Assembly: GCA_913063225.1 (NCBI GenBank)
Contig: CAJXYP010000019.1
Coordinates: 1,178-65,177, forward strand
DNA: 64,000 bases
Source: an uncultured Cellvibrionales bacterium
GTDB taxonomy: Bacteria; Pseudomonadota; Gammaproteobacteria; Pseudomonadales; GM7GCV1
Direction of reading: 5' to 3'
This document shows, piece by piece, positions 5,750 to 39,438 of the stretch. Made by a program: the position numbers and the translations under genes. Under the pieces are notes generated by a model. That model ran no database searches. It was not told the DNA's origin and saw nothing but the letters and a program-made list of their open reading frames with translations. Position 1 is the stretch's first letter; the number at the start of each line of letters is the position of its first letter.

Positions 5750-7909
5750 TTATAGACGATATTGGATACTTAGACCAATTTCTCTTGGCTCACCAAATTG
5801 AAAATAGTTATTTGTTGCATAGCCATCTCTAGGATCATTTCCAAAAGAACCGAAGCCTCGAGTTGTATAGTCCTCGTTGGTTAGATTGCGGCCCCACAAT
5901 GACACTTCGATGTCGTCGCTGGCGTTCCATATCATGCGAGCACTAAGGAGACTGTAGGCTTCAGCTTCAGCAAAATGTCGATTGGAGAAACGGAACTGAT
6001 CCTTAGAGTCCACAGAAAGCCAGAAACCTAAATTGTCAGAGAACGAATAATCCAGGCTTAAGCTGAGTTGATACTCTGGCGACTGAGCCAAAGGTTCTCC
6101 TGACATATCGTAAGGCACAACGGATCCGCCAATATCGACAGCATTGATGTGGCTAAAGCTGTCATATGTGCCAAAAGCAGTTCGCATTAGCCCCAAGCTA
6201 GTATTGACACTGAATCGATCAGTTACAGGCCAATATGCTTCTGCCTCCATTCCGTAGCTGTGTGCCTCTGCGGCGTTATCTACAAAGTCTTCAAAGGAGC
6301 ATGCGCCAACACCGATCGGGCAGCTTACAAGAGACTGCTTTACTTGAGCGTCGCGGCGATCCTGATAGAAGACAGAGATCTGACTGACTACCCCGGAGTC
6401 CAAAGTGCTCTTAAGGCCGAATTCATAGTTCCAAAGGGTTTCTGTTTCATATTCCAGAGGAATAACCGCGCCACGAGAAACGTTCACACCGCCAGTTTTA
6501 TAACCGCGAGCAATACGAATATAGGTGAAATATTTGTTGAGTATTTTTACTTCGTAGGTGAGATGCCCGCCCAGCAGGGTCTCGTCCGTATCAGTAGATT
6601 GGGCGAGGCTGTCACCATATTCAGAGCTGAAGTTTTCCGCTCTTAGGCCTAAGCGAATTTGTGTGGCAGTGGTGGCCGTAGGTAGCGTTATTTCTCCATA
6701 AACCGCAGTATTTTGCGACTCATATTCGCTTGAAAAAGAGGTCGTAGATTCGGGCGTAAAGGGGTCTGAATATTTGTAGTTTCGGGTGAGGTCGGCATTC
6801 TGGCTTTTTCCGTACAATCCTAAAATCCAACCAATGCCATTGGGTGGCACCTCTGAGATTAATCTCAGGTCCAAGGTATTCGTATCGGTATCGCGCAGGT
6901 ATTTATCGAAACTTGAGTACCAATAGCAATCCGACGGATCAGCGCCACCACATAAATCTAAATTGGCCCAGTCTTCGTCAAAACTATATTCTGAGTCAGA
7001 TTGAGCTGTGGAAAGTAGGACATCCAGATCGAGCGTGCTGGTTAATTCCAGAGATGCATCGCTCGAGAGCGCAAAAGAATCTAAGGCATCAGTGCCGGGT
7101 TCATCTGAAATTGTTTCGCGCAGGTTGTCGAGTGTGAAGCTGTCATAACCGTTGTCGATATCCAGTTTTATTGCAGTAAAGCTAACGTCTAAGACATCAG
7201 AAACTTCCCAATCAAGCTTTCCTCGAACCGTTAGTTCATCTATATTTTGAGTATCATCACGGCTCAAATAAACGTTCTCAACAAAACCATCGCTTTTGGT
7301 ATTTTGGATAGCCAGTCTTCCATTGAACGAATCCGCCAATGGACCACTTAATACTAGGCCAAGATTTGAACTGTCGGTGGTACCCTCATTTCCAGATATA
7401 TCACCAATGCCGGCTGTAAGTATTACTTCCGGACTATTCGATGGGTCATTGGACTCAATGTTGATCATACCCGCCAATGCATTAGCTCCGAAAAGGGTTC
7501 CCTGTGGGCCACGTAAAATCTCCACCTGATCGATATCAAACAAAGTGGCTGCAGCTCCTAAAGTGCTGTAGTCGATACCATCGATGATCAAGCCAACTCC
7601 CGGATTGAGTGGGTCAATAAATTGGCTGCGTTCTCCAATACCGCGGATTTGAAAAAATCGGCCGCGCGATGCGCCTGAGGAATAGTTTAGATTTGGTGTG
7701 CTAGCCAAAGCTTCAGTGAGGAAGTTGGCGCTGCGGTTGGAGATCTCATCAGCAGATATAAGGCTAATGCTGTTTGGGGTTTCCATCAGATTGATGGGGC
7801 GAAACTCTGCCTGAATAATAATGTCTTCGATATAGACTTGTGCGGGAAGGTAGGTGCTAAAGCCTATTAAGCTTAAACAGCCAATTTTTGCGGTGTTTGA
7901 TAAGTTCAT
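5750..7909 (-). CDS. TonB-dependent outer-membrane receptor
   Basis: Signal peptide, plug-domain motifs (FFQIRGIGERSQF, VEILRGPQGTLFGANA) and a long beta-barrel; 719 aa. First gene after the TPP riboswitch. Confidence 0.9.
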   Translation of the reverse strand: MNLSNTAKIGCLSLIGFSTYLPAQVYIEDIIIQAEFRPINLMETPNSISLISADEISNRSANFLTEALASTPNLNYSSGASRGRFFQIRGIGERSQFIDPLNPGVGLIIDGIDYSTLGAAATLFDIDQVEILRGPQGTLFGANALAGMINIESNDPSNSPEVILTAGIGDISGNEGTTDSSNLGLVLSGPLADSFNGRLAIQNTKSDGFVENVYLSRDDTQNIDELTVRGKLDWEVSDVLDVSFTAIKLDIDNGYDSFTLDNLRETISDEPGTDALDSFALSSDASLELTSTLDLDVLLSTAQSDSEYSFDEDWANLDLCGGADPSDCYWYSSFDKYLRDTDTNTLDLRLISEVPPNGIGWILGLYGKSQNADLTRNYKYSDPFTPESTTSFSSEYESQNTAVYGEITLPTATTATQIRLGLRAENFSSEYGDSLAQSTDTDETLLGGHLTYEVKILNKYFTYIRIARGYKTGGVNVSRGAVIPLEYETETLWNYEFGLKSTLDSGVVSQISVFYQDRRDAQVKQSLVSCPIGVGACSFEDFVDNAAEAHSYGMEAEAYWPVTDRFSVNTSLGLMRTAFGTYDSFSHINAVDIGGSVVPYDMSGEPLAQSPEYQLSLSLDYSFSDNLGFWLSVDSKDQFRFSNRHFAEAEAYSLLSARMIWNASDDIEVSLWGRNLTNEDYTTRGFGSFGNDPRDGYATNNYFQFGEPREIGLSIQYRL

Positions 7910-15404: not shown

Positions 15405-16469
15405 TTAGGCTGAATGGCCTACCCAGTGGTTATCCCAAAAGATCCCCGAAGGAATATTCTTGCCGGCACGGGAAACCTCGCCAACGCCGCTACTTAACCA
15501 CCAGTTTCCATCCACACTGGTGGCAGCGGAAATATCCAAAGAATGCACTGATTCAATCGGTTGGCCTAGATGATCCCAGCGGCCATAAATATGCCCCTGT
15601 GGTGAGGTAGCTACAACTTCGGCATCAGATACCGCGACGCTGGCTATATAACCGTTAAAGCTTGGCCAGCCGGATTTAGGTTCATCAGCTACCTTCCATC
15701 CCTTGGGCGCTGAATAGCTATAGAGCAAGGCATCTTGGGTGGGGGCCGGGTCAGCAAGCTGCATCCCTACCCATAAGGTTTCTCCGTCAGAATCTAGATG
15801 GCGGGCACTTAAATTACTGCCAGGCGCAGGAACAAAGGAGCTTATTGAAGATACTTCTGGATCAAAAAATACTAAACCGGACTCAAAGTTATCGGCGTTC
15901 AAAATGGTGCGGCCGACGGATTGCCATCCGCCAACGGCAATAACTATCTGGTTAGATATCGATAGCATTTGGTGGGGGCCTAGTCCGGCGATTGAAATCT
16001 GCTTGGGTGGTAGGGATAAGTCCGCCAGTCTGTATCTCAATAGAATTGATTCGCTTGTCTCGATCGGAGAAGCAGTAGCCCAAAGTTCGTCTTGGCCCTC
16101 TTTATTGATTTGGAATAGGGCGTGGCCCTCAAATATCAACCCTTCCGGGACCACAATCTGGCCTAGGTCTTTACCGTCCGCGGGACTAAATAGCTGAATA
16201 AACTTGCCAGGACGTCGTGCCACAACCGCACCGACGGATAAATCATCGCTTAGGCATAGTTCGTGCACCCGAGCAGGCGTATCTAGCTTCCAAACCAGAT
16301 CGCCTCTCTGGTCGATACAGGCGGCGCCATAAGTATTGCCATAGCTGCGAAATCCACCATACAGGCGAAGAGCTGGCTCGCCAAATTCACCAAGGGAGCA
16401 GGCGCCTAGTTGCAGTGCCGCTAAACTAGTACCACTTAACTTAATAAATTCGCGACGCTTAAGCTGCAC
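15405..16469 (-). CDS. DUF1513-family periplasmic beta-propeller-like protein with a Tat signal
   Basis: Twin-arginine leader MQLKRREFIKLSG...LGAC. Last gene of the imelysin / DUF1111 cluster. Confidence 0.8.
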   Translation of the reverse strand: MQLKRREFIKLSGTSLAALQLGACSLGEFGEPALRLYGGFRSYGNTYGAACIDQRGDLVWKLDTPARVHELCLSDDLSVGAVVARRPGKFIQLFSPADGKDLGQIVVPEGLIFEGHALFQINKEGQDELWATASPIETSESILLRYRLADLSLPPKQISIAGLGPHQMLSISNQIVIAVGGWQSVGRTILNADNFESGLVFFDPEVSSISSFVPAPGSNLSARHLDSDGETLWVGMQLADPAPTQDALLYSYSAPKGWKVADEPKSGWPSFNGYIASVAVSDAEVVATSPQGHIYGRWDHLGQPIESVHSLDISAATSVDGNWWLSSGVGEVSRAGKNIPSGIFWDNHWVGHSA

Positions 16470-16472
16470 TTT

Positions 16473-17465
16473 TTAGTCGCCATCAAAATTGTTAAAACCA
16501 ATCAAAATGCCAAAGTCTTGCGCAAGATCAGTTTCTAGAAAATTTGCCAGTTGCGTAAACAGGGTTTGCAAATCATCCAATGTTTCAGGGTTTTGTTGAT
16601 GGGCAGCTAAGTTTTCAAATTCGGCCAATATGTTATTCGCGTCCTGCGCATAGGCTTGAAGTTGTATTTCGTTTTCCGTAGATATGGTTGATGCCTGACC
16701 GGTATGCTCGAGCATTGCCGCTAGGCTTATTAAAGATTGCTGGTATACCAGCCAGGTATTTTCCGACCGCCATCCCTCCGCCAGGTAACTTACCCAAAGC
16801 CCTTCTTCATTCCGACTTTGTCGTAAGTGGGATTCCAAGCGCGAAATTTGTGAGTAGAGCAGGTTAAGGGCAATTGAGCGCCCGGCAATTACATCTGAAT
16901 CAAGCGTCCATTCATCGAGTACTACCGGCGCAGCTTGATGATACTCACGCAGGGTAGTTACATCGGCCAAATATACCTCGCTAACCGCTACCAAGGTGGT
17001 GCAACGCTGGGCTTGAGTTAAGCCTTCTTTATAGAGCAACCACTCAAGGGCTGGGATGCCTTTCTCAGCGGCAATTAGCTGGTTGTAAGCGTCTGATGTT
17101 AAAGGCTGGCCGGATTCAGCGCGTGCACCCAAGCGGATCTCGGTCATATTGCGCTTGTCTGGCCAAAAGTAGAGAGAGAACGACAGGGCTTGCTCGTCGA
17201 TTGCCTTATAAGGATAGCCATTAATATAAGCCCATTGGCCCAGTGTTTCTGTGAAGGCCGATCTTGCCGCATCAATATCCGCTGATCCCGCGCAATAGTT
17301 CTGATTAATTGCGAGCATCTGGCCGGAATTTTCTAGCCATGTATCAGCTTGGGCATTAGCCCAGTTTTTCCAGTGCAGAGAGAGAGAAGCCTCTTTTGAT
17401 GTGCAGGCAAAGAGTACTGAGGCCATCGCGGCCGCGATTATTATGCGGTAAGCGTTTTTGTACAT
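16473..17465 (-). CDS. imelysin-like (peptidase M75 fold) lipoprotein
   Basis: Lipobox VLFAC, helical composition and conserved cluster position. Confidence 0.7.
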   Translation of the reverse strand: MYKNAYRIIIAAAMASVLFACTSKEASLSLHWKNWANAQADTWLENSGQMLAINQNYCAGSADIDAARSAFTETLGQWAYINGYPYKAIDEQALSFSLYFWPDKRNMTEIRLGARAESGQPLTSDAYNQLIAAEKGIPALEWLLYKEGLTQAQRCTTLVAVSEVYLADVTTLREYHQAAPVVLDEWTLDSDVIAGRSIALNLLYSQISRLESHLRQSRNEEGLWVSYLAEGWRSENTWLVYQQSLISLAAMLEHTGQASTISTENEIQLQAYAQDANNILAEFENLAAHQQNPETLDDLQTLFTQLANFLETDLAQDFGILIGFNNFDGD

Positions 17466-17466
17466 T

Positions 17467-18894
17467 TTAGAGAGAGTCTAAAAAGAGAAGCAGCGAGTTT
17501 AGTTTATCTTCGGAAAGTTGCGCTACTTCATTTTTTGCCACAGCCGCTTCGCCGTCGTGCCAAAGTATGGCTTCTAGTGCATTGCGGGCGCGTCCATCGT
17601 GCAAAAACTGGGTATGGCCGTTAACGGTTTGGTACTTGCCCAAACCCCAGAGAGGAGGCGTTCTCCATTCTTGTCCAGTCGCGTCAAAGTCAGGCCGGTT
17701 ATCCGCCAAGCCTTCACCTAAGTCATGCAGTAGCAGGTCCGTATAGGGGTAGATGGTCTGATTGCTTAGGGCTGGGCTGATTCCAACTCCAGTTTGCCAG
17801 TTAGGCGTGTGGCAACCTGCACAGCCAACATCGGTAAATACTTGTTCTCCCGCTACCACTTCCGGATCCATTGCGTCGGTCCGAGCAGGAACCGCAAGGT
17901 GGCTGGAATAAAAGCTCACCAGTCCTAATAGCTCATCGCTGATTTCGGGGTAGCCTCCGTCAGGAGCCTGTACACAGCTAGTTTGCGCCGGCATGCAGCT
18001 TTCGTTGGGTGACAGGCTAGAGGTAATGCCAATATCACCAAAAAACGCAGCCGCACTTTGTTGTTCTACGGTTGGTTTACTGGCTTTCCAGCCAAATCGG
18101 CCCAATACCAACTCTTCGTTGATGCCGTCCCAAACTGTATTTGGCCTGCCTGAGATACCATCCATGTTTGTATCTTCAGCATCGGCATTGGCGAGAATAT
18201 ATTCGGCTGGGATAGCTTCCAGTAATCCTAGCCCGATCATGGCAGGGGCTACCCTTGGACTTATCATTAAGTCAGGGTGCATTGGGCCGTAAGCCAAATG
18301 AGTCAGCTCAATAAGGGGCTTACGCAGCTCTACCACTCGGCCATTAGCCATTTCGAAATTTGAATATTCGTATTCCCACTGAATACGTGCCTCGGGTTCT
18401 ACGCCAGCTACAGAGAAGTCCTGTAACTGATCTCCGTAAGTCGGTTCGGCAATTACTCCATCCGAGGGAGATCTAGGGTTGCTATCGGTTTCAGGAATAC
18501 TCAATCGAATCAGGGTTGAAACAGCTTGCGCCTGACCCGGTAGAGGCGGATGACCTCGACCATCTTTGATATGACAGCCCTGACAGCTATTGGTATTGAA
18601 TAGAGGGCCCAGGCCGTCTCGTGCGGTGGTCGTTGCTGGTGCCGCTATCCAGGGGTTCCGAAAGAAACTATTGCCGATACTAAAATTCATACGGCCCTCA
18701 AGATCGAGATTGGAGGCCGGTTGCGAAAAGGCATTTGCGTCCTGAAACTGCGTAGTAGTAGCACCACCGGGGAGGCTCGGGTCCGCAAAGGCCGGTGCGG
18801 TGGATAATGAACTAACAAGAGCTGTCGTACCAACAATCGCAAACTTTCGGAAGCGATGACGCAGCAAACGAAAGTTCAGGTATCGAAATTGCAC
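17467..18894 (-). CDS. di-heme c-type oxidoreductase (DUF1111, cytochrome c peroxidase-like)
   Basis: Two CxxCH motifs (CQGCH and CAGCH) and a signal peptide; 475 aa. Confidence 0.8.
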   Translation of the reverse strand: MQFRYLNFRLLRHRFRKFAIVGTTALVSSLSTAPAFADPSLPGGATTTQFQDANAFSQPASNLDLEGRMNFSIGNSFFRNPWIAAPATTTARDGLGPLFNTNSCQGCHIKDGRGHPPLPGQAQAVSTLIRLSIPETDSNPRSPSDGVIAEPTYGDQLQDFSVAGVEPEARIQWEYEYSNFEMANGRVVELRKPLIELTHLAYGPMHPDLMISPRVAPAMIGLGLLEAIPAEYILANADAEDTNMDGISGRPNTVWDGINEELVLGRFGWKASKPTVEQQSAAAFFGDIGITSSLSPNESCMPAQTSCVQAPDGGYPEISDELLGLVSFYSSHLAVPARTDAMDPEVVAGEQVFTDVGCAGCHTPNWQTGVGISPALSNQTIYPYTDLLLHDLGEGLADNRPDFDATGQEWRTPPLWGLGKYQTVNGHTQFLHDGRARNALEAILWHDGEAAVAKNEVAQLSEDKLNSLLLFLDSL

Positions 18895-18896
18895 TC

Positions 18897-20165
18897 TTAG
18901 AAATGTCCTTCCGTGTTTGCCGCAAGTGAAGTTAGCCCAAGGGCAATGGCTGAAGCTTCGATAGCTCTTGTTTGAACTACCAAGGCATCAATAGCATTTT
19001 GGATCATTGCTGTGCCTTCTGAATTTCCAAAAGATATTAGCTGATCAAAGGCTACGCCAGACTGTGCTGAATCAACTATTAGTCCAATAATTTGAGTCGT
19101 GCTGTTAAGCGCCGCCGTTAACTCCACAGCAAGAGCCGGGTCGTGTTTCTCCAATAGCTCAACGACCGATAAACCGCTGCTAAGGTTTCTAGTAAAGTTG
19201 GACTGGCCCATCAATACGTTTGATATGCCAATTTGATCGTGCAAAAGAGTGAAGTGCGTATTGTCAGAGAAACAATCGTGCTCGTCTTCGGGAGAGTTAG
19301 CGTAGAGAGCAACCTTCATACGTTCGCCCGCCAATTCACCTAGGGAAAGGCTACCGACTCCAAAAAGAATACGACGCAGCTGCTCCTTGGCATACAGTGC
19401 CGAAAATTCATTGCTATAGCTGTCCGCGGATGTAGCGTCCCATTGGGTAATAACCCATTCAAGATCTTCAATTAGCAGCTCCGTTACCGACTGCAGATAG
19501 TCGCGTCGGCGGTCGCAATTGCCATTTGTGCACTCAGTTGTATCAAGAGCAAAGTCTGTAATCGGGCGGTTGCCAGCTCCCGGACCCGTACCGTTTAAAT
19601 CTTGGCCCCAGAGTAGAAATTCTATGGCATGCCATCCAGTAGCAACATTCGCTTCCGTGCCGCCCAGTTCGTTTAGGCTAGCTAGGAGCTCAGAGTTCAA
19701 ATCGGTTAGGTCGAGAGTTTGAGGCCCAAAGCTCAAACTGGTATTCGCAATCAGGTTTGCCTGGCCGACAGGATTTCCGAGCTCATAGAAATAGTTGGTG
19801 TGGTCTACGTAGTCGATAAATCCTTCATCCAAAGGCCATGCATTCAGCTGAGGTTCCCAGTCATCAATAATTACATTGCCAAAACGGAAGGCTTCGATCT
19901 CAGCGTAAGGTTTGCGCGCTTCTGTCCAGCTATTTTTTGCGGTCTGAAGGCTAGCTTCGCTTGGAGATGCCAAGAAGGCTTGAACGGCATTTTGCATGAC
20001 AAGAGCTTCATTCAAAGATGCACCGAAGGCTTCTGAGGCGAGTTCCAGATAGCGTTCGCCAACGGATTCAAGTTCAGAATCTGTAGGTGCAGCCTGACCA
20101 GCCGGACTGAAGGATAGGCATATAGCGGCAAGCGCGCTTAATAGAGGAAGGTTCTTAATAGGCAT
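18897..20165 (-). CDS. imelysin / IrpA-like peptidase M75 family protein
   Basis: Signal peptide, GWHAIEFLLWGQD (HxxE-type imelysin motif) and cluster context. Confidence 0.75.
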   Translation of the reverse strand: MPIKNLPLLSALAAICLSFSPAGQAAPTDSELESVGERYLELASEAFGASLNEALVMQNAVQAFLASPSEASLQTAKNSWTEARKPYAEIEAFRFGNVIIDDWEPQLNAWPLDEGFIDYVDHTNYFYELGNPVGQANLIANTSLSFGPQTLDLTDLNSELLASLNELGGTEANVATGWHAIEFLLWGQDLNGTGPGAGNRPITDFALDTTECTNGNCDRRRDYLQSVTELLIEDLEWVITQWDATSADSYSNEFSALYAKEQLRRILFGVGSLSLGELAGERMKVALYANSPEDEHDCFSDNTHFTLLHDQIGISNVLMGQSNFTRNLSSGLSVVELLEKHDPALAVELTAALNSTTQIIGLIVDSAQSGVAFDQLISFGNSEGTAMIQNAIDALVVQTRAIEASAIALGLTSLAANTEGHF

Positions 20166-20193: not shown

Positions 20194-20212
20194 ACGAATG
20201 AGAAATATTATC
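20194..20212. promoter_or_regulatory. candidate Fur box upstream of the imelysin cluster
   Basis: ACGAATGAGAAATATTATC matches the 19-bp consensus GATAATGATAATCATTATC at 13 of 19 positions. It lies 29-47 nt upstream of the start at 20165. Confidence 0.4.
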
Positions 20213-20248
20213 ATTTAGAAATGGGGAAGAGCAATGTGTTAATCGGAG

Positions 20249-35183: not shown

Positions 35184-35214
35184 TATGTTACAACCTAAAG
35201 TCAACTTGAGGTCA
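35184..35214 (-). promoter_or_regulatory. MerR-type promoter/operator for the methyltransferase gene
   Basis: The minus strand reads TTGACC TCAAGTTGACTTTAGGTTG TAACAT. The spacer is 19 bp and contains the palindrome ACCTCAAGT-TG-ACTTTAGGT. Confidence 0.6.
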
Positions 35215-35226
35215 ATAGATGAATTT

Positions 35227-35631
35227 ATGGATATAGGTCAAGTTTCAAAGATTTGTAAATTACCAGTTTCAACATTAAGATTCTATGAAGAAAAAGGACT
35301 CATTCAGTCAATTGGCCGTAAGGGTTTAAGACGATATTTTTCTAAAAATGTGGTTGATACTCTTAACCTAATTTCATTAGGGCGCAATGTAGGGTTATCG
35401 TTAGATGAGATAGGAAAAATGCTACTTCCTCAAGGCCTTCAAATTGATAGGAACTTACTTCTATCTAAAGCAAATGAATTAGATATAAAAATTATGGAAA
35501 TGACAGCAATGAGAGATGGGCTTCGCCATGCCTCCGCTTGCAAAGCACCTTCTCATATGGAATGTCCGAAATTCCTTCGCTTGCTAAATGTTGCAGGCAA
35601 AAGATGGGGCAGGCCTAAGAAGAAGCTATAG
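35227..35631 (+). CDS. MerR-family transcriptional regulator
   Basis: MDIGQVSKICKLPVSTLRFYEEKGLI HTH. The C-terminal region has two Cys residues (CKAPSHMEC). The listed ORF starts at 35185, but the ATG at 35227 fits MerR N-termini better. Confidence 0.85.
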   Translation: MDIGQVSKICKLPVSTLRFYEEKGLIQSIGRKGLRRYFSKNVVDTLNLISLGRNVGLSLDEIGKMLLPQGLQIDRNLLLSKANELDIKIMEMTAMRDGLRHASACKAPSHMECPKFLRLLNVAGKRWGRPKKKL

Positions 35632-35952
35632 CCGATAAAATATAACACCCTACTAAGGGGCCGCTGCGAAGCTGCCGTCCCGCGGAGCCAGCGATAGCTG
35701 GCACAAAGATTGAAGCTGTCGTCCCCGATGTCGAAGGCACAATCAACACTCGGCTGCGCAAGCGAACACCGGCCGGGGACTATGACGCAACGCTTGAGAT
35801 GGACTCGTCTACCAGAGCCAACCGCTATCAGGGGTTAATGGCATTTGCGGTGAGGGGGCCACAACACGCTGCCCTTGGCTGCGTGCCAACGGACTTCACC
35901 GGAAACATATAGAAAGATCGGGACACCCATCAACTTAATCGCTAGAGATAGT

Positions 35953-36152
35953 AACGCAGGGCATTAGGCCAAAGGCTAGTAAACCATGAGGGTAGTAGTG
36001 GATGTCCTGAACTTCGCAAGAATGTAGGCCATTAGCACAAGGACTAGTAAACCGTGACCGTAATAGTGGATGTATAAAACTTCGCTGACGTTGTGGTTTA
36101 CTCTGGCACTTTACACTGACCCTAAAGACCCCAAGTATTACTTGCTTATATG
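35953..36152 (-). repeat. long attC-like element containing an internal tandem duplication
   Basis: The minus strand starts ATATAAGCAAGTAATAC (overlapping a stop codon, as in copy A) and ends CCTGCGTTAC. It has the internal inverted repeat AGTAAACC/GGTTTACT. Confidence 0.4.
35959..36085. repeat. 68-bp-period tandem repeat, about 1.9 copies
   Basis: GGGCATTAGGCCAAAGGCTAGTAAACCATGAGGGTAGTAGTGGATGTCCTGAACTTCGC versus GGCCATTAGCACAAGGACTAGTAAACCGTGACCGTAATAGTGGATGTATAAAACTTCGC. Confidence 0.8.
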
Positions 36153-36301
36153 TTGAATTTTTGTTGAATTAAATTTTCCTGATTTAGCCATAATGAGATT
36201 GATAATGGATTATCAGGTTCCTGACCAAAACGGATTTTATTGCGGATAAGGCTCAAGTCAGGATTATTTTTGTAACTATATTGTTTATCCACGTCCTTCA
36301 T
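36146..36301 (-). CDS. possible 51-aa ORF overlapping the sodX 3' end
   Basis: MKDVDKQYSYKNNPDLSLIRNKIRFGQEPDNPLSISLWLNQENLIQQKFNI. No recognisable motif. It could be non-coding. Confidence 0.25.
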   Translation of the reverse strand: MKDVDKQYSYKNNPDLSLIRNKIRFGQEPDNPLSISLWLNQENLIQQKFNI

Positions 36302-36611
36302 TAGTGCACCACCTCGTCGATCGTGACACCTGCCCAACAACCCGACCTAAGACTTGCGCAGGTTGGATACTACCCAAAGTCAAAGTGTCGGTTGAAGCGG
36401 CAAGATTATCGCCCACTAATAATAGGGTGCCACCGTTTTCTATTGTGATGATTCGTTTAATTATCTTTCCATACTGAGCATGTTCGACCACCACCACATC
36501 GCCTTGTTTAAAGACTGAATGGAGTCGTCGATATGCTATTACAAAATCACTGCAGCAGAAGCTAGGCTGCATGCTATCTCCGGCGACTTTATAACAGCCA
36601 AGCCTAATCAT
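36285..36611 (-). CDS. sodX: S26-family peptidase, NiSOD maturation protease SodX-like
   Basis: GDSMQP (catalytic Ser), GDVVVV, IKRI (Lys) and the GDN box. It lies immediately downstream of sodN. Confidence 0.75.
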   Translation of the reverse strand: MIRLGCYKVAGDSMQPSFCCSDFVIAYRRLHSVFKQGDVVVVEHAQYGKIIKRIITIENGGTLLLVGDNLAASTDTLTLGSIQPAQVLGRVVGQVSRSTRWCTNEGRG

Positions 36612-36650
36612 GTTCTGCTACACATACCAATCATGTGGGTTAGATCAAGG

Positions 36651-37151
36651 TTATTTAAGCTTTGGATAAACAATCATTTCTGCAGGAAGGTAAGGGCTTG
36701 TTGCTGTATACGTTGCAACTTTTTTAGTGCTCCAATAAGCCGCCGCGAATTCATTCACCAAGGCTAATAATTTTTCACCTTTCTCGCGCTCAAGCCCTTG
36801 CTTACACGCAGAACCAGCCAGCATGATGTCGTGTACTAGTGTATGAATATTAGGAAACTGATCAAGCTGAGGCTGTTTAAAATAATCACCCCAGATAATT
36901 CTAATTTCATGCTTAACTTTTTCTGCATGCACTTCTTTCTCAGCCACTAATCGACCTAACTTGGCCTGGTCAGCCAGTGACAGTGTTTCTGTGCTCGCTA
37001 ACTCGTTGATCAAGTCCATAAAGCGAACAGTGCTTAATGTTGCTATTTGTGCCGTAATTGGATCGTAAACTTTACAAGGAATATCACAATGAGCGGAAGC
37101 CGTGTCTATACCTACCAACTTATCGTACAAGCTAATTAGATTGTGCAACAT
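36651..37151 (-). CDS. sodN: nickel superoxide dismutase precursor
   Basis: A pro-peptide followed by the Ni-hook HCDIPCKVYDP. WGDYFKQPQLDQFPNIHTLV parallels Streptomyces SodN WSDYFKPPHFESYPELHTLV. Confidence 0.92.
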   Translation of the reverse strand: MLHNLISLYDKLVGIDTASAHCDIPCKVYDPITAQIATLSTVRFMDLINELASTETLSLADQAKLGRLVAEKEVHAEKVKHEIRIIWGDYFKQPQLDQFPNIHTLVHDIMLAGSACKQGLEREKGEKLLALVNEFAAAYWSTKKVATYTATSPYLPAEMIVYPKLK

Positions 37152-37154
37152 AAT

Positions 37155-37367
37155 TTATTTTTCCTTATTTACAGTTTTAATATTTTTTGATTTGCGTAAA
37201 TAGAACCAGATTCCGGTCCCAATAGCGTAAGCCAATGCCGCTAAAAGAAAAGAATGAACCGCAGGGCTTGCCCAGTGTCCGTGGTCATGGCCTGAATGTG
37301 CTGCTACGAAACTTGCAGGTGTTATCAGCGCTACCGCTAGAGGGAGAGATTTTTTAAATGACATCAT
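37155..37367 (-). CDS. 70-aa membrane protein with a His-rich segment (HSGHDHGHWASPAVH)
   Basis: Hydrophobic N-terminus, His cluster, a second TM segment and a basic tail. Its start overlaps the upstream stop (TAATG), and its stop is 3 nt from the sodN ATG. Confidence 0.65.
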   Translation of the reverse strand: MMSFKKSLPLAVALITPASFVAAHSGHDHGHWASPAVHSFLLAALAYAIGTGIWFYLRKSKNIKTVNKEK

Positions 37368-37810
37368 TATGCAGTGTCCTTAGAAAGATGAAGTATAGGT
37401 TGGAATTCCAACTCGAAAAAAACATTAATGACCTTTTCTTCATGCGCGCTAAAAATGCCTAAGCGTTTAACGTTCGCAGCCAATTCAGTGCCTGCACGTC
37501 GGCTTGCACCGTGAAATGCACTGGTGATGTTAGACGTACCCACATTAATTAAATAATAAGATTTTAACTGCTGATAAAGGTCTTGGTAGGTATTAATAGC
37601 CTGTGAATTATTGTGCTTTCTAAAATGCACATTCGCGATATTTTGATAGCTAATAACCAACGCAACAATTGCTGCTTCAGTATCATCCCAATGAGGCAGC
37701 AACAGGCGTGCGCGCTGGCAAGCCGTTGTATAATGCCGTATCGCGACACCGTCTTGACCTTCGTTAAAGGCTGTATTGCCTTGCAATATCTCTTTTTTCC
37801 ATTGCTCCAT
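37367..37810 (-). CDS. hypothetical 147-aa helical protein, first gene of the NiSOD operon
   Basis: GGGAG Shine-Dalgarno before the ATG at 37810. Translationally coupled to the next gene. I cannot assign a family. Confidence 0.7.
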   Translation of the reverse strand: MEQWKKEILQGNTAFNEGQDGVAIRHYTTACQRARLLLPHWDDTEAAIVALVISYQNIANVHFRKHNNSQAINTYQDLYQQLKSYYLINVGTSNITSAFHGASRRAGTELAANVKRLGIFSAHEEKVINVFFELEFQPILHLSKDTA

Positions 37811-37830
37811 GACTAACTCCCAAAAACTGC

Positions 37831-37876
37831 CTGAATGATAATGATAATGATAATGATAATGATAATCATTATCATT
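37831..37876. promoter_or_regulatory. extended Fur-box array: five tandem GATAAT hexamers plus an inverted CATTATC
   Basis: 37837-37866 is (GATAAT) x 5. 37855-37873 is GATAATGATAATCATTATC, identical to the 19-bp Fur consensus. It overlaps candidate -10 hexamers (TATCAT on the minus strand) 27-66 nt upstream of the operon ATG. Confidence 0.8.
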
Positions 37877-37984
37877 CGTGGTTGTCTATGGATAATTAGT
37901 TTTTTTGAGCAATTTTGGAGGAAAACACGTAAAAATAAATTTAGATTCAAAATAAATCCACCAAATGGCTAAATTTTAGTGAGT

Positions 37985-38440
37985 TAATCTCTCTTTTTCA
38001 TCCAATGTGAACTCAATTATTTTAATGATTTTGCTAAATTCGATTACATCTTGCTCTGAGCCATTCATTTCATAGCCAGATGATCGTGCAACACCTTTTA
38101 TAGATTTAGGGTGTGCCTTCACATACCTTTTCTGCCTGATCTTCTGATAAGACGTTTGCAGTCGCTTTATACTCAGAATTTTTTAATGTAACAAATACTG
38201 AGTTGTTCGCCAAAATGTTCTTAAATCACTGAGATTCCTCACCAAAACCGGATGCTGAATATATCTTTCTGCTGGTTTCATCCTGATCTATGACTTCTAT
38301 TCCAGCTTCTTTAAGGTCTCCAGGTTTTCTTCCCTAATGCTTCAAATGGATAAATCTGTCGCCTAGTAAAAAACCGAGATGAAATCTGTAGAGACATAGT
38401 GGAAGTCTAAATAATTTTAGTTTAAAGCCTTTGGGTAGAG
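37985..38440 (-). pseudogene. decayed cassette ORF (pieces in three frames)
   Basis: Minus-strand fragments MSLQISSRFF..., GRKPGDLKEAGIEVIDQDETSRKIYSASGFGEESQ*, FKNILANNSVFVTLKNSEYKATANVLSEDQAEKVCEGTP* and KSIKGVARSSGYEMNGSEQDVIEFSKIIKIIEFTLDEKERLTH* follow one another in shifting frames. There is no ORF of 60 aa or more in about 600 nt. Confidence 0.4.
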
Positions 38441-38490
38441 TAGGCTCACCTATTGTAGTTAGCATACTAAATTATCCAGATAATTGATTT

Positions 38491-38585
38491 TAACGCCACA
38501 ATAAACGGCAGAAAATAGTTGGCTAAAATGTGAGGCACGAACGATGGCCAACTATTTTATATCCGATTTAATTACCTTGTTATAT
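38491..38585 (-). repeat. attC-like imperfect palindrome (copy B)
   Basis: The minus strand reads ATATAACAAGGTAATTAAATCGGATATAAAATAGTTGGCCATCGTTCGTGCCTCACATTTTAGCCAACTATTTTCTGCCGTTTATTGTGGCGTTA. It has a perfect 12-bp inner stem AAAATAGTTGGC/GCCAACTATTTT and shares its ends and centre with copy A. Confidence 0.65.
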
Positions 38586-38589
38586 GCTT

Positions 38590-39438
38590 TTACTTTTCAT
38601 TGAGTGACTGGAAGTATCGACTTAATGTCTGGGCGCCAAATTTAGGTGCATTCATATCCATAACCAATACATTCAAGAAAAATTCAATAGAGCCATACCT
38701 CTTGGCGTTCAAAAACAACTTACACAAGGTTAATAAAAAAATACGTATCCAATTGGGAATAAACGTTATTTTGACGGGTTTACCAACAGCCTCAAATGCA
38801 ACCTTTGCAAGTTCAACTTGAGTGAAGACTTCAGGTCCGCCAACTAAAATCTCTTTTTCAATATTGGCGATGGCATCTATGCAAACTTTAGCCAAATCAT
38901 CTCCATGTATAGGATTTGATTGATATTCCCCTCTACCAAACAAATAAACCCGACCGTTATCTGCCATCTTGTAAAACTCAGTCATGTCTGAGAAAAAACC
39001 TGTTGGCCTCACTACACAATAGTCCAAACCTGATTCACTCAGCTCTTTAACAAATTTTTCTTTAGCCTCGAAAATTTTAAGTTGTTTAAGTTTGTCTCCA
39101 TGTAAAGCAGATACATATATAAATTTTTTAACACCACTACGCTTAGCTTCGTTAAGTAGGTTTAAGTTTGCTTGATAATCAACATCCATATAAGACAAAC
39201 CATCTTGCTGCCTTGTTATTCCAAGTGAAGAGATTACGACATCTACTCCATCACAGCAGTTAACTAGGGCGCGTGCGTTGGTCGCTTCGGCTTCAAAGAT
39301 ATCAATGTCTGGTTGGAACTCTTCCAGTTTCACCGAGCTACGAGCTAAAGCAACAAGTCGGATTTTTTTTGCGATAAGGTTTTGGACAATAAACTTACCC
39401 AAATAGCCAGTTGAACCTGCTACTAATACTCGTTTCAT
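38590..39438 (-). CDS. NAD(P)H-binding (NmrA/atypical SDR-like) protein
   Basis: MKRVLVAGSTGYLGKFIV Rossmann motif; 282 aa. Confidence 0.85.
   Translation of the reverse strand: MKRVLVAGSTGYLGKFIVQNLIAKKIRLVALARSSVKLEEFQPDIDIFEAEATNARALVNCCDGVDVVISSLGITRQQDGLSYMDVDYQANLNLLNEAKRSGVKKFIYVSALHGDKLKQLKIFEAKEKFVKELSESGLDYCVVRPTGFFSDMTEFYKMADNGRVYLFGRGEYQSNPIHGDDLAKVCIDAIANIEKEILVGGPEVFTQVELAKVAFEAVGKPVKITFIPNWIRIFLLTLCKLFLNAKRYGSIEFFLNVLVMDMNAPKFGAQTLSRYFQSLNEK

Follow-up and report, generated by a model that had tools for sequence, protein, structure and literature searches.

A candidate Fur operator bearing a GATAAT hexamer array on the predicted promoter of a nickel superoxide dismutase operon in an uncultured Cellvibrionales bacterium

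Is the nickel superoxide dismutase (NiSOD) of an uncultured Cellvibrionales bacterium controlled by iron through Fur, and does the long run of Fur-type hexamers on its promoter take part in that control? These questions are raised by a 64,000-nucleotide stretch of contig CAJXYP010000019.1 (positions 1,178 to 65,177; hereafter the window, whose own numbering is used throughout), in which five tandem GATAAT hexamers precede a minus-strand operon encoding a DUF2753 protein (OrfX), a small membrane protein rich in His, SodN (the precursor of the NiSOD), and the protease SodX. The original prediction, made from the letters alone, held that a Fur box within the array acts as an iron-sparing switch, the NiSOD replacing an iron-dependent superoxide dismutase (SOD) when iron is scarce, and that the length of the array suggests cooperative binding of several Fur dimers. 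The first of these claims was supported by the enrichment of such sites at related loci, by the iron-sparing character of the neighboring genes, and by RNA-seq results from Alteromonas macleodii; on this evidence we place the probability that the locus is a Fur-repressed, iron-sparing NiSOD operon at about 0.85. The second claim fared less well, as described below.

The five hexamers were read at 37837-37866 on the plus strand and are followed by CATTATCATT. The core Fur box, the 19-mer GATAATGATAATCATTATC, occupies 37855-37873. Two tests were applied to the site, one using the 19-bp Fur consensus GATAATGATAATCATTATC and the other the 7-1-7 inverted repeat TGATAATnATTATCA, and it showed no mismatch to either; the perfect 7-1-7 core, TGATAATCATTATCA, lies inside the core Fur box (37860-37874). 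By chance, 0.01 matches per window are expected for the 19-mer at up to three mismatches (dinucleotide-shuffled window) and 0.31 for the 15-mer 7-1-7 repeat at up to two. A consensus scan predicted a -35 element TAGACA (37888-37883, minus strand) and, 18 nt to its 3' side, a -10 element TATCAT (37864-37859, minus strand). This pair is the best sigma-70-like match in 35900-38600, scoring 10 of 12, and the core Fur box overlaps its spacer and its -10 element, the latter lying within the box. A Shine-Dalgarno sequence, GGGAG (37817-37821, minus strand), stands 6 nt ahead of the ATG at 37810. Both the array with its perfect consensus and the candidate promoter thus agree in position and letters with what had been claimed. 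Tandem Repeats Finder described the period-6 array as 100% perfect, the full periodic run covering 33 nt (37834-37866) and reading (GATAAT)5 on the plus strand and (ATTATC)5 in the direction of transcription. The extra hexamers span the expected transcription start and the 5' untranslated region (UTR); all are downstream of the -10 element, and the spacing between the -35 and -10 elements is therefore unaltered.

To place the site in context, we drew on species-representative genomes for 80 sodN loci, almost all of them titled marine Gammaproteobacteria, in which the cluster genes and operon starts were called with hidden Markov models. A 7-1-7 core with at most two mismatches was present upstream of the cluster in 34 of 78 loci compared with 12 of 710 background windows taken from the same loci (Fisher p = 5.6e-28), the background rate of Fur-box cores being 1.7% of windows. 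With the 19-mer at up to four mismatches the corresponding counts were 22 of 78 and 16 of 1513 (Fisher p = 8.6e-21). Many of the sites were bordered by GCAAAT...ATTTGC, the extended flanks that Fur boxes typically show, and where fagA-like and fumC genes stand ahead of orfX, the box precedes the first of those genes (e.g., loci L080, L048, and L026). This enrichment, obtained from the comparison of sodN upstream regions that had been proposed as a check, supports the assignment to Fur. The composition of the clusters supports it as well, because they are linked to Fur-regulated iron-sparing genes: a DUF2753 gene adjoins sodN-sodX, or the His-rich gene, sodN, and sodX, at 46 of the 80 loci, fumC (its identity confirmed by Lyase_1 and FumaraseC_C) occurs in the cluster at 15, including the close relatives L001 and L086, a gene in the position of fagA at 19, and a flavodoxin gene at 4 or more (confirmed in L003).

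Further support comes from the induction of the A. macleodii orthologues under iron limitation. Manck et al. 2020 (PMC7190382) reported that Ni-SOD and fumarase C are induced in iron-limited A. macleodii, and the RNA-seq supplement for strain ATCC 27126 lists log2 fold changes under Fe limitation of 5.67, 5.34, 4.88, and 5.50 for MASE_02355 (S24 peptidase), MASE_02360 (Ni SOD), MASE_02365 (hypothetical), and MASE_02370 (hypothetical), respectively. These genes form a four-gene run, ending in the Ni SOD and S24 peptidase genes, of which all members are induced approximately 30- to 50-fold. The authors of that study reported the Ni-SOD enrichment but described no Fur box at the locus and did not discuss the operon. 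Other Alteromonas loci have the same order of DUF2753, His-rich gene, sodN, and sodX with a palindromic Fur box upstream, GCAAATAATAACAATTATCATTTGC, which differs from the site in the window in being a single palindrome with no array and in lying about 440 nt upstream of the longest open reading frame (ORF) start of orfX, beyond an intervening ORF.

The closest characterized counterpart is the operon fagA-fumC-orfX-sodA of Pseudomonas (PA4471-PA4468; PFL_0906-09), which is Fur-regulated and induced by iron starvation (PMC3377617, citing Polack 1996 and Hassett 1997). The hypothetical gene (OrfX) of this operon in P. putida encodes a DUF2753 protein (PMC8360965), and the listed Fur regulon of V. 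parahaemolyticus includes a gene of this family (PMC12341060). Like the locus in the window, where the promoter is a predicted one, the Pseudomonas operon has a Fur box on its promoter and a DUF2753 OrfX gene directly adjoining a gene for a non-iron SOD; in relatives the likeness extends to fumC and the fagA-position gene (L001, L003, L005, L086, L033, L059, L080, and others), and the logic of replacing iron-dependent enzymes when iron is scarce would be the same. The two differ in that the Pseudomonas operon encodes the Mn enzyme SodA, whereas the window encodes SodN together with SodX and the conserved His-rich small membrane protein. The gene order is also permuted, with orfX first and the fagA-like and fumC genes upstream or downstream, and the window has no fumC and only a 51-aa stub of the fagA-position gene. 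Judged by gene content, the locus is best described as a Mn-to-Ni variant of this operon type and not as a member of it, because its SOD belongs to Sod_Ni/TIGR02753 rather than to Mn SodA.

The genes of the operon were assigned as follows. Gene 1 (37367-37810, minus strand) encodes a 147-aa protein that the original prediction called unknown; the ORF stands, but the product belongs to the tetratricopeptide repeat (TPR)-like family DUF2753. On its own the protein scores weakly against Pfam (17.8 bits). PF10952 (DUF2753) is nevertheless assigned to its identical database copy and to 66 of 66 homologues with a precomputed Pfam match (68 homologues were found), the orthologue at locus L033 is above the family cut-off (30.2 versus 28.7 bits), and the profile of the family matches consensus TPR proteins. 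The ORF upstream of sodN at locus L045 aligned poorly with the family and was left out of the OrfX alignment. Gene 2 (37155-37367, minus strand) encodes a 70-aa protein with a signal peptide, the His cluster AH-x-GHDH-x-HW, one transmembrane helix, a basic tail, and a weak match to DUF6732. A gene of this type stands directly upstream of sodN at about 60 of the 80 loci, and its His motif is nearly invariant. Gene 3, sodN (36651-37151, minus strand), encodes an Ni superoxide dismutase precursor that matches Sod_Ni of Pfam (9.6e-47) and scores 166 bits with TIGR02753, where the cut-off is 90. Its 20-aa leader is followed by the Ni-hook HCDIPCKVYDP, which fits H-C-x-x-P-C-x-x-Y and is found as HCDIPCK(I/V)YDP in 81 of 86 sequences (85 related loci plus the window). 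Gene 4, sodX (36285-36611, minus strand), encodes an S24/S26-type protease with Peptidase_S24 and S26 scores of 35.8 and 36.2 bits, both above cut-off; its best NCBIfam match is TIGR02754, the Ni-SOD maturation protease, at 58 bits, just below the cut-off of 63.25. SodX has the GDSMQP serine box, the KR box, and the GDN box, and its gene adjoins sodN in essentially all related loci. Genes 1 and 2 overlap by one base (TAATG at 37367), and the gaps from gene 2 to sodN and from sodN to sodX are 3 and 39 nt, respectively. The tight packing, the SodN hook, and the SodX-type protease were therefore all as first read, and the four genes were confirmed; a fifth, truncated ORF after sodX (36146-36301, minus strand), a 51-aa remnant of the fagA-position gene that overlaps the end of sodX, had been missed.

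These features suggest how the operon may work. One promoter (-35 TAGACA, -10 TATCAT) would drive the four genes and the remnant. Since the core box lies across the spacer and the -10 element, Fe(II)-Fur bound to it would occlude RNA polymerase as long as iron is sufficient; under iron scarcity, Fur would depart and the cell would make an SOD that is free of iron. What the analysis shows are the sequence features, how far they are conserved, the gene families, and the difference in array length between the assemblies; Fur binding and repression in this organism are inferred. SodX would remove the 20-residue leader of SodN and so expose His1 of the Ni-hook, and the small membrane protein, with its His cluster predicted to face the periplasm, plausibly helps to supply nickel. 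The cluster as a whole would be a fagA-fumC-orfX-SOD module in which sodN, sodX, and the His-rich gene take the place of Pseudomonas sodA, its fumC end having been deleted here. The E. coli sodA gene offers a parallel, in that dissociation of Fe-Fur lifts the repression of a non-iron SOD, as proposed for the window. It differs in being monocistronic, in being controlled also by SoxRS, ArcA, and FNR, and in having no DUF2753, fumC, or protease partners.

Several observations weigh against control by Fur as set out here. Searches of the 64-kb window by tblastn, with approximate queries for E. coli Fur and SodB, gave no match to fur, sodB, or, anywhere in its length, fumC; the partner that the NiSOD would replace is therefore unseen. 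The promoter is a consensus match, predicted from sequence. The assignment of MASE_02365 and MASE_02370 as the His-rich and DUF2753 genes comes from gene order in other Alteromonas loci. In approximately 40% of the related loci, Marinobacter and several high-GC lineages among them, the scan gave no good Fur core, and either Fur control of sodN clusters is widespread without being universal or the operon-start calls miss some of the sites. Finally, family and profile searches failed to show that the fagA-position gene is homologous to Pseudomonas FagA.

What, then, of the array itself? The promoter in the window can be aligned, base by base, with those of eight sister sequences (L001 and L082-L088), whose OrfX proteins show 53-83% identity. 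The promoters share CCAAAATTG, ATAGACAA, GA(A/T)TG(A/G)TAATGATTATCATT(A/G)C, GGGA(G/A)G, and the ATG. In all eight the -35 region is kept as ATAGACAA and the orthologous Fur core as GATAATGATTATCATTAC; the TATCAT -10 element lies within GATTATCATTAC, which is conserved in the sister lineages, and the Shine-Dalgarno sequence is kept as GGGAG or GGGAAG. Each of the eight has a single ATTATC unit. Among the loci examined, arrays of three or more tandem units were found in no locus other than L081, a 1.98-Mb ENA contig that encodes identical proteins and that matches the window over 6444 nt with no mismatch and a single 24-nt gap, having nine units compared to five. A look-up of other contigs with identical proteins gave only this one ENA contig, the 70-aa protein having no entry there, and exact promoter-pattern scans of metagenome contigs matched only L088, which is of a single-box lineage.

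Because the sister lineages carry one core box on the same promoter, the long array is a lineage-specific microsatellite and not a conserved design feature. The ancestral box is an ordinary F-F-x-R Fur box with two or three mismatches to the 19-mer, and the perfect 19-mer in the window is a by-product of the hexamer expansion, which copied the middle hexamer. By this account strand slippage would recently have expanded the ATTATC hexamer that is promoter-distal in the F-F-x-R box, adding in-phase Fur hexamers over the transcription start and lengthening the 5' UTR by 24 nt, and it would not be needed for Fur control. Cooperative multi-dimer binding by the array, which had been suggested from its length, is consequently unsupported as a conserved feature. 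In the hexamer model of the Fur box, Fur binds arrays of GATAAT hexamers; as an extension of the classical F-F-x-R arrangement, the site in the window reads F5-x-R and that of L081 F9-x-R. Natural extended operators such as that of the aerobactin promoter are degenerate and stable, whereas the array in the window is a perfect tandem repeat whose length differs between near-identical assemblies.

If Fur controls the operon, it may do so through the single ancestral core box, the additional hexamers being a neutral microsatellite or in part an artefact of assembly. We give this account roughly even odds. The single ATTATC unit on the same promoter in all eight sister sequences, the restriction of three or more units to this lineage, and the fact that the two assemblies differ only by 24 nt within the array are all in keeping with it, as is the RNA folding of the repeat-bearing 5' UTR (AUUAUC repeats), which showed no structure beyond that of shuffled controls (z = +1.3). 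With respect to artefact, the periodic runs of 33 and 57 nt equal the shortest loop-free de Bruijn lengths at k=31/33 and k=55, respectively, if the assemblers behaved as we suppose. Against artefact, a perfect 69-nt run of (GGCAAA)11.5 was retained at 1506-1574, which indicates that longer period-6 runs could be resolved. Against neutrality, the added in-phase hexamers would be expected to be bound by Fur; Fur reportedly binds synthetic arrays of three or more GATAAT hexamers (Escolar, Perez-Martin and de Lorenzo 1998). The difference between five and nine units may be either a true slipped-strand polymorphism or an effect of assembly. The count of five is probably real, because the window keeps a perfect period-6 run of 69 nt, longer than the 33 nt of the array, and the number of units in the source of L081 could exceed nine.

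A bolder proposal is that the array is a hypermutable contingency locus in which the number of Fur hexamers tunes the shut-off of NiSOD by iron. Five and nine units were observed with no mismatch over 6444 flanking bases, the repeat unit is as long as the Fur hexamer and slippage would hence keep the phase of the operator, and the 64 kb hold another perfect microsatellite of hexamers, which suggests a slippage-prone genome. The proposal is nonetheless doubtful, for there are two observations only, both from short-read-style assemblies and drawn either from one sample or from different strains. In its full form, with the unit number (5, 9, or more) varying heritably and reversibly by strand slippage between cells or strains and so shifting either the iron threshold of NiSOD repression or how tight that repression is, it is somewhat more doubtful still. 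Were it true, such a "tunable Fur box" would seem to be undescribed for any Fur-regulated gene in the literature searched; a length-variable microsatellite of Fur hexamers is in any case an unusual curiosity.

The second perfect hexamer repeat in the 64 kb, (GGCAAA)11.5 on the plus strand, is located inside an apparent universal-stress-protein gene (ORFs 1233-1586 and 1471-1785). The N-terminal half of this protein reads the repeat as (GK)n and the C-terminal half reads it in another frame as (AK)n; the two halves being in different frames, the gene is frameshifted at or near the repeat. A pseudogene, an error of sequencing, or a gene controlled by slippage would each be a possible explanation.

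Use of the site by a metalloregulator other than iron-Fur, such as a Nur-like nickel sensor, Zur, Mur, or another Fur paralogue, is very unlikely. Fur-family paralogues do recognize related AT-rich inverted repeats, nickel-responsive control of an NiSOD would make physiological sense, and in Streptomyces NiSOD is under Nur (PMC2691836, PMC3919588, PMC11672702), likewise a Fur-family protein that chooses between Ni SOD and Fe SOD (PMC3919588, PMC11672702). The Streptomyces regulator, however, is a nickel sensor that recognizes another box, and its activation of sodN is indirect, via a small RNA processed from sodF. In the window, the promoter of the sodN operon itself bears a site without mismatch to the iron-Fur consensus, and a Nur box is absent from it. 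The Nur-type motif TTGCAA-N5-TTGCAA, at up to three mismatches, occurred 35 times in the window versus 48.5 expected by chance and had no match in 37811-38000; the nearest, at 38020, has three mismatches and is at chance frequency. Moreover, the co-clustered fumC, flavodoxin, and DUF2753 genes are iron-sparing and not nickel genes, and the A. macleodii genes respond to iron limitation. A non-regulatory coincidence of the Fur box was ruled out by the conservation statistics.

The downstream end of the cluster has been lost in the window. The 51-aa remnant shares 86% identity with the N-terminus of L086's 127-aa protein and then meets a stop, and blastp matched it (7e-07) with the ORF that lies upstream of fumC in L080. 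In relatives the full-length gene in this position encodes about 115-127 aa and stands beside fumC; in L001, L003, L005, and L086 it follows sodX and is itself followed by a class II fumarase-like gene. Since the window has a stub where L001 and L086 have the full gene and fumC, we conclude that a deletion removed the 3' part of the fagA-position gene together with fumC. No Pfam or NCBIfam model matched the fagA-position gene, and a profile search with it returned only unnamed marine hypothetical proteins and recovered no Pseudomonas match; its closest named matches are in Thalassotalea, Litorilituus, Colwellia, and Vibrio sp. S4M6. The fumarase-like gene of L086 (2724-4100) scored 486 bits against the NCBIfam fumC_II cut-off of 665 and 482 bits against the aspartase subfamily cut-off of 510, and by these scores the fumarase-like gene of the clusters is a divergent member of the class II fumarase/aspartase family.

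Between the merR-family gene (35185-35631) and the fagA-position remnant, a 68-bp unit is repeated in tandem at 35958-36085 (1.9 copies, 78% identity). It occupies the spot where relatives carry the rest of the fagA-position gene and fumC, had no further copy in the window or the fetched loci, and may be a scar of deletion or rearrangement. On the other side of the operon, the approximately 700 bp between its promoter and an NmrA-like gene (38590-39438) hold no ORF longer than 48 aa, no gene called in the ENA annotation, and no Rfam match (37900-38590); an Rfam search of the wider interval 35500-38700 also gave no match. This stretch may be a decayed gene, and in the L082 lineage an acetyltransferase gene stands upstream instead.

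Only one other Fur-like 7-1-7 site was found in the window, TGAGAAATATTATCA at 20199-20213 with two mismatches. It sits 34-48 nt upstream of a minus-strand operon of imelysin (18897-20165), di-haem oxidoreductase (17467-18894), imelysin (16473-17465), and DUF1513 (15405-16469) genes. Imelysin/di-haem oxidoreductase gene sets are iron-regulated in other bacteria. A gene for a TonB-dependent siderophore-type receptor (5750-7909), unlike the sodN promoter, has no Fur core at up to two mismatches in its upstream region.

Two features of the related loci may be added. In the Cellvibrionales metagenome-assembled genomes (MAGs) L003 and L005, the DUF2753-sodN cluster has a flavodoxin gene (2225-2773) upstream of it and a fagA-like gene and fumC at its end. 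The 19-mer Fur box is matched three times, with 2-4 mismatches, at 2040 and 2160-2166. The whole amounts to an eight-gene putative iron-sparing "super-operon." The closest relative of the sodN cluster among genome contigs, L001 (JBLHVV010000027.1; 87% SodN identity), is labelled as a MAG of the Crocinitomicaceae (Bacteroidota), and another homologue (P0013) is labelled Flavobacteriia; these contigs are probably mis-binned, because the cluster is otherwise gammaproteobacterial throughout.

The original prediction had also stated that NiSOD regulation is known through Nur and not through Fur. This is borne out in part, in that a 2024 review cites only Nur for sodN (PMC11672702), but induction of NiSOD by iron limitation in a marine gammaproteobacterium was already published (PMC7190382). 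Searches of the literature for sodN with a Fur box, a Fur regulon, or fumC found nothing for Gammaproteobacteria, and the Fur box and operon homology across marine Gammaproteobacteria appear, in the literature searched, not yet to have been written up. The locus extends the known Pseudomonas paradigm and overturns no current understanding. Control by Fur would explain, at the level of regulation, why Ni-SOD was induced in the published A. macleodii work. It also puts into context two uncharacterised families, DUF2753/OrfX and the small membrane protein with the AHxGHDHxHW motif, and makes them good candidates for a part in the metallation of SOD or in iron-starvation physiology. More broadly, the locus links the nickel and iron economies of marine heterotrophs: when iron is scarce, many Gammaproteobacteria, among them Alteromonas, Paraglaciecola, Marinomonas, Cobetia, Neptunomonas, Oleiphilus, and the Cellvibrionales, appear to turn, via Fur, to one module made up of a nickel SOD, a fumarase free of iron, and flavodoxin, which predicts a higher demand for nickel in iron-poor waters.

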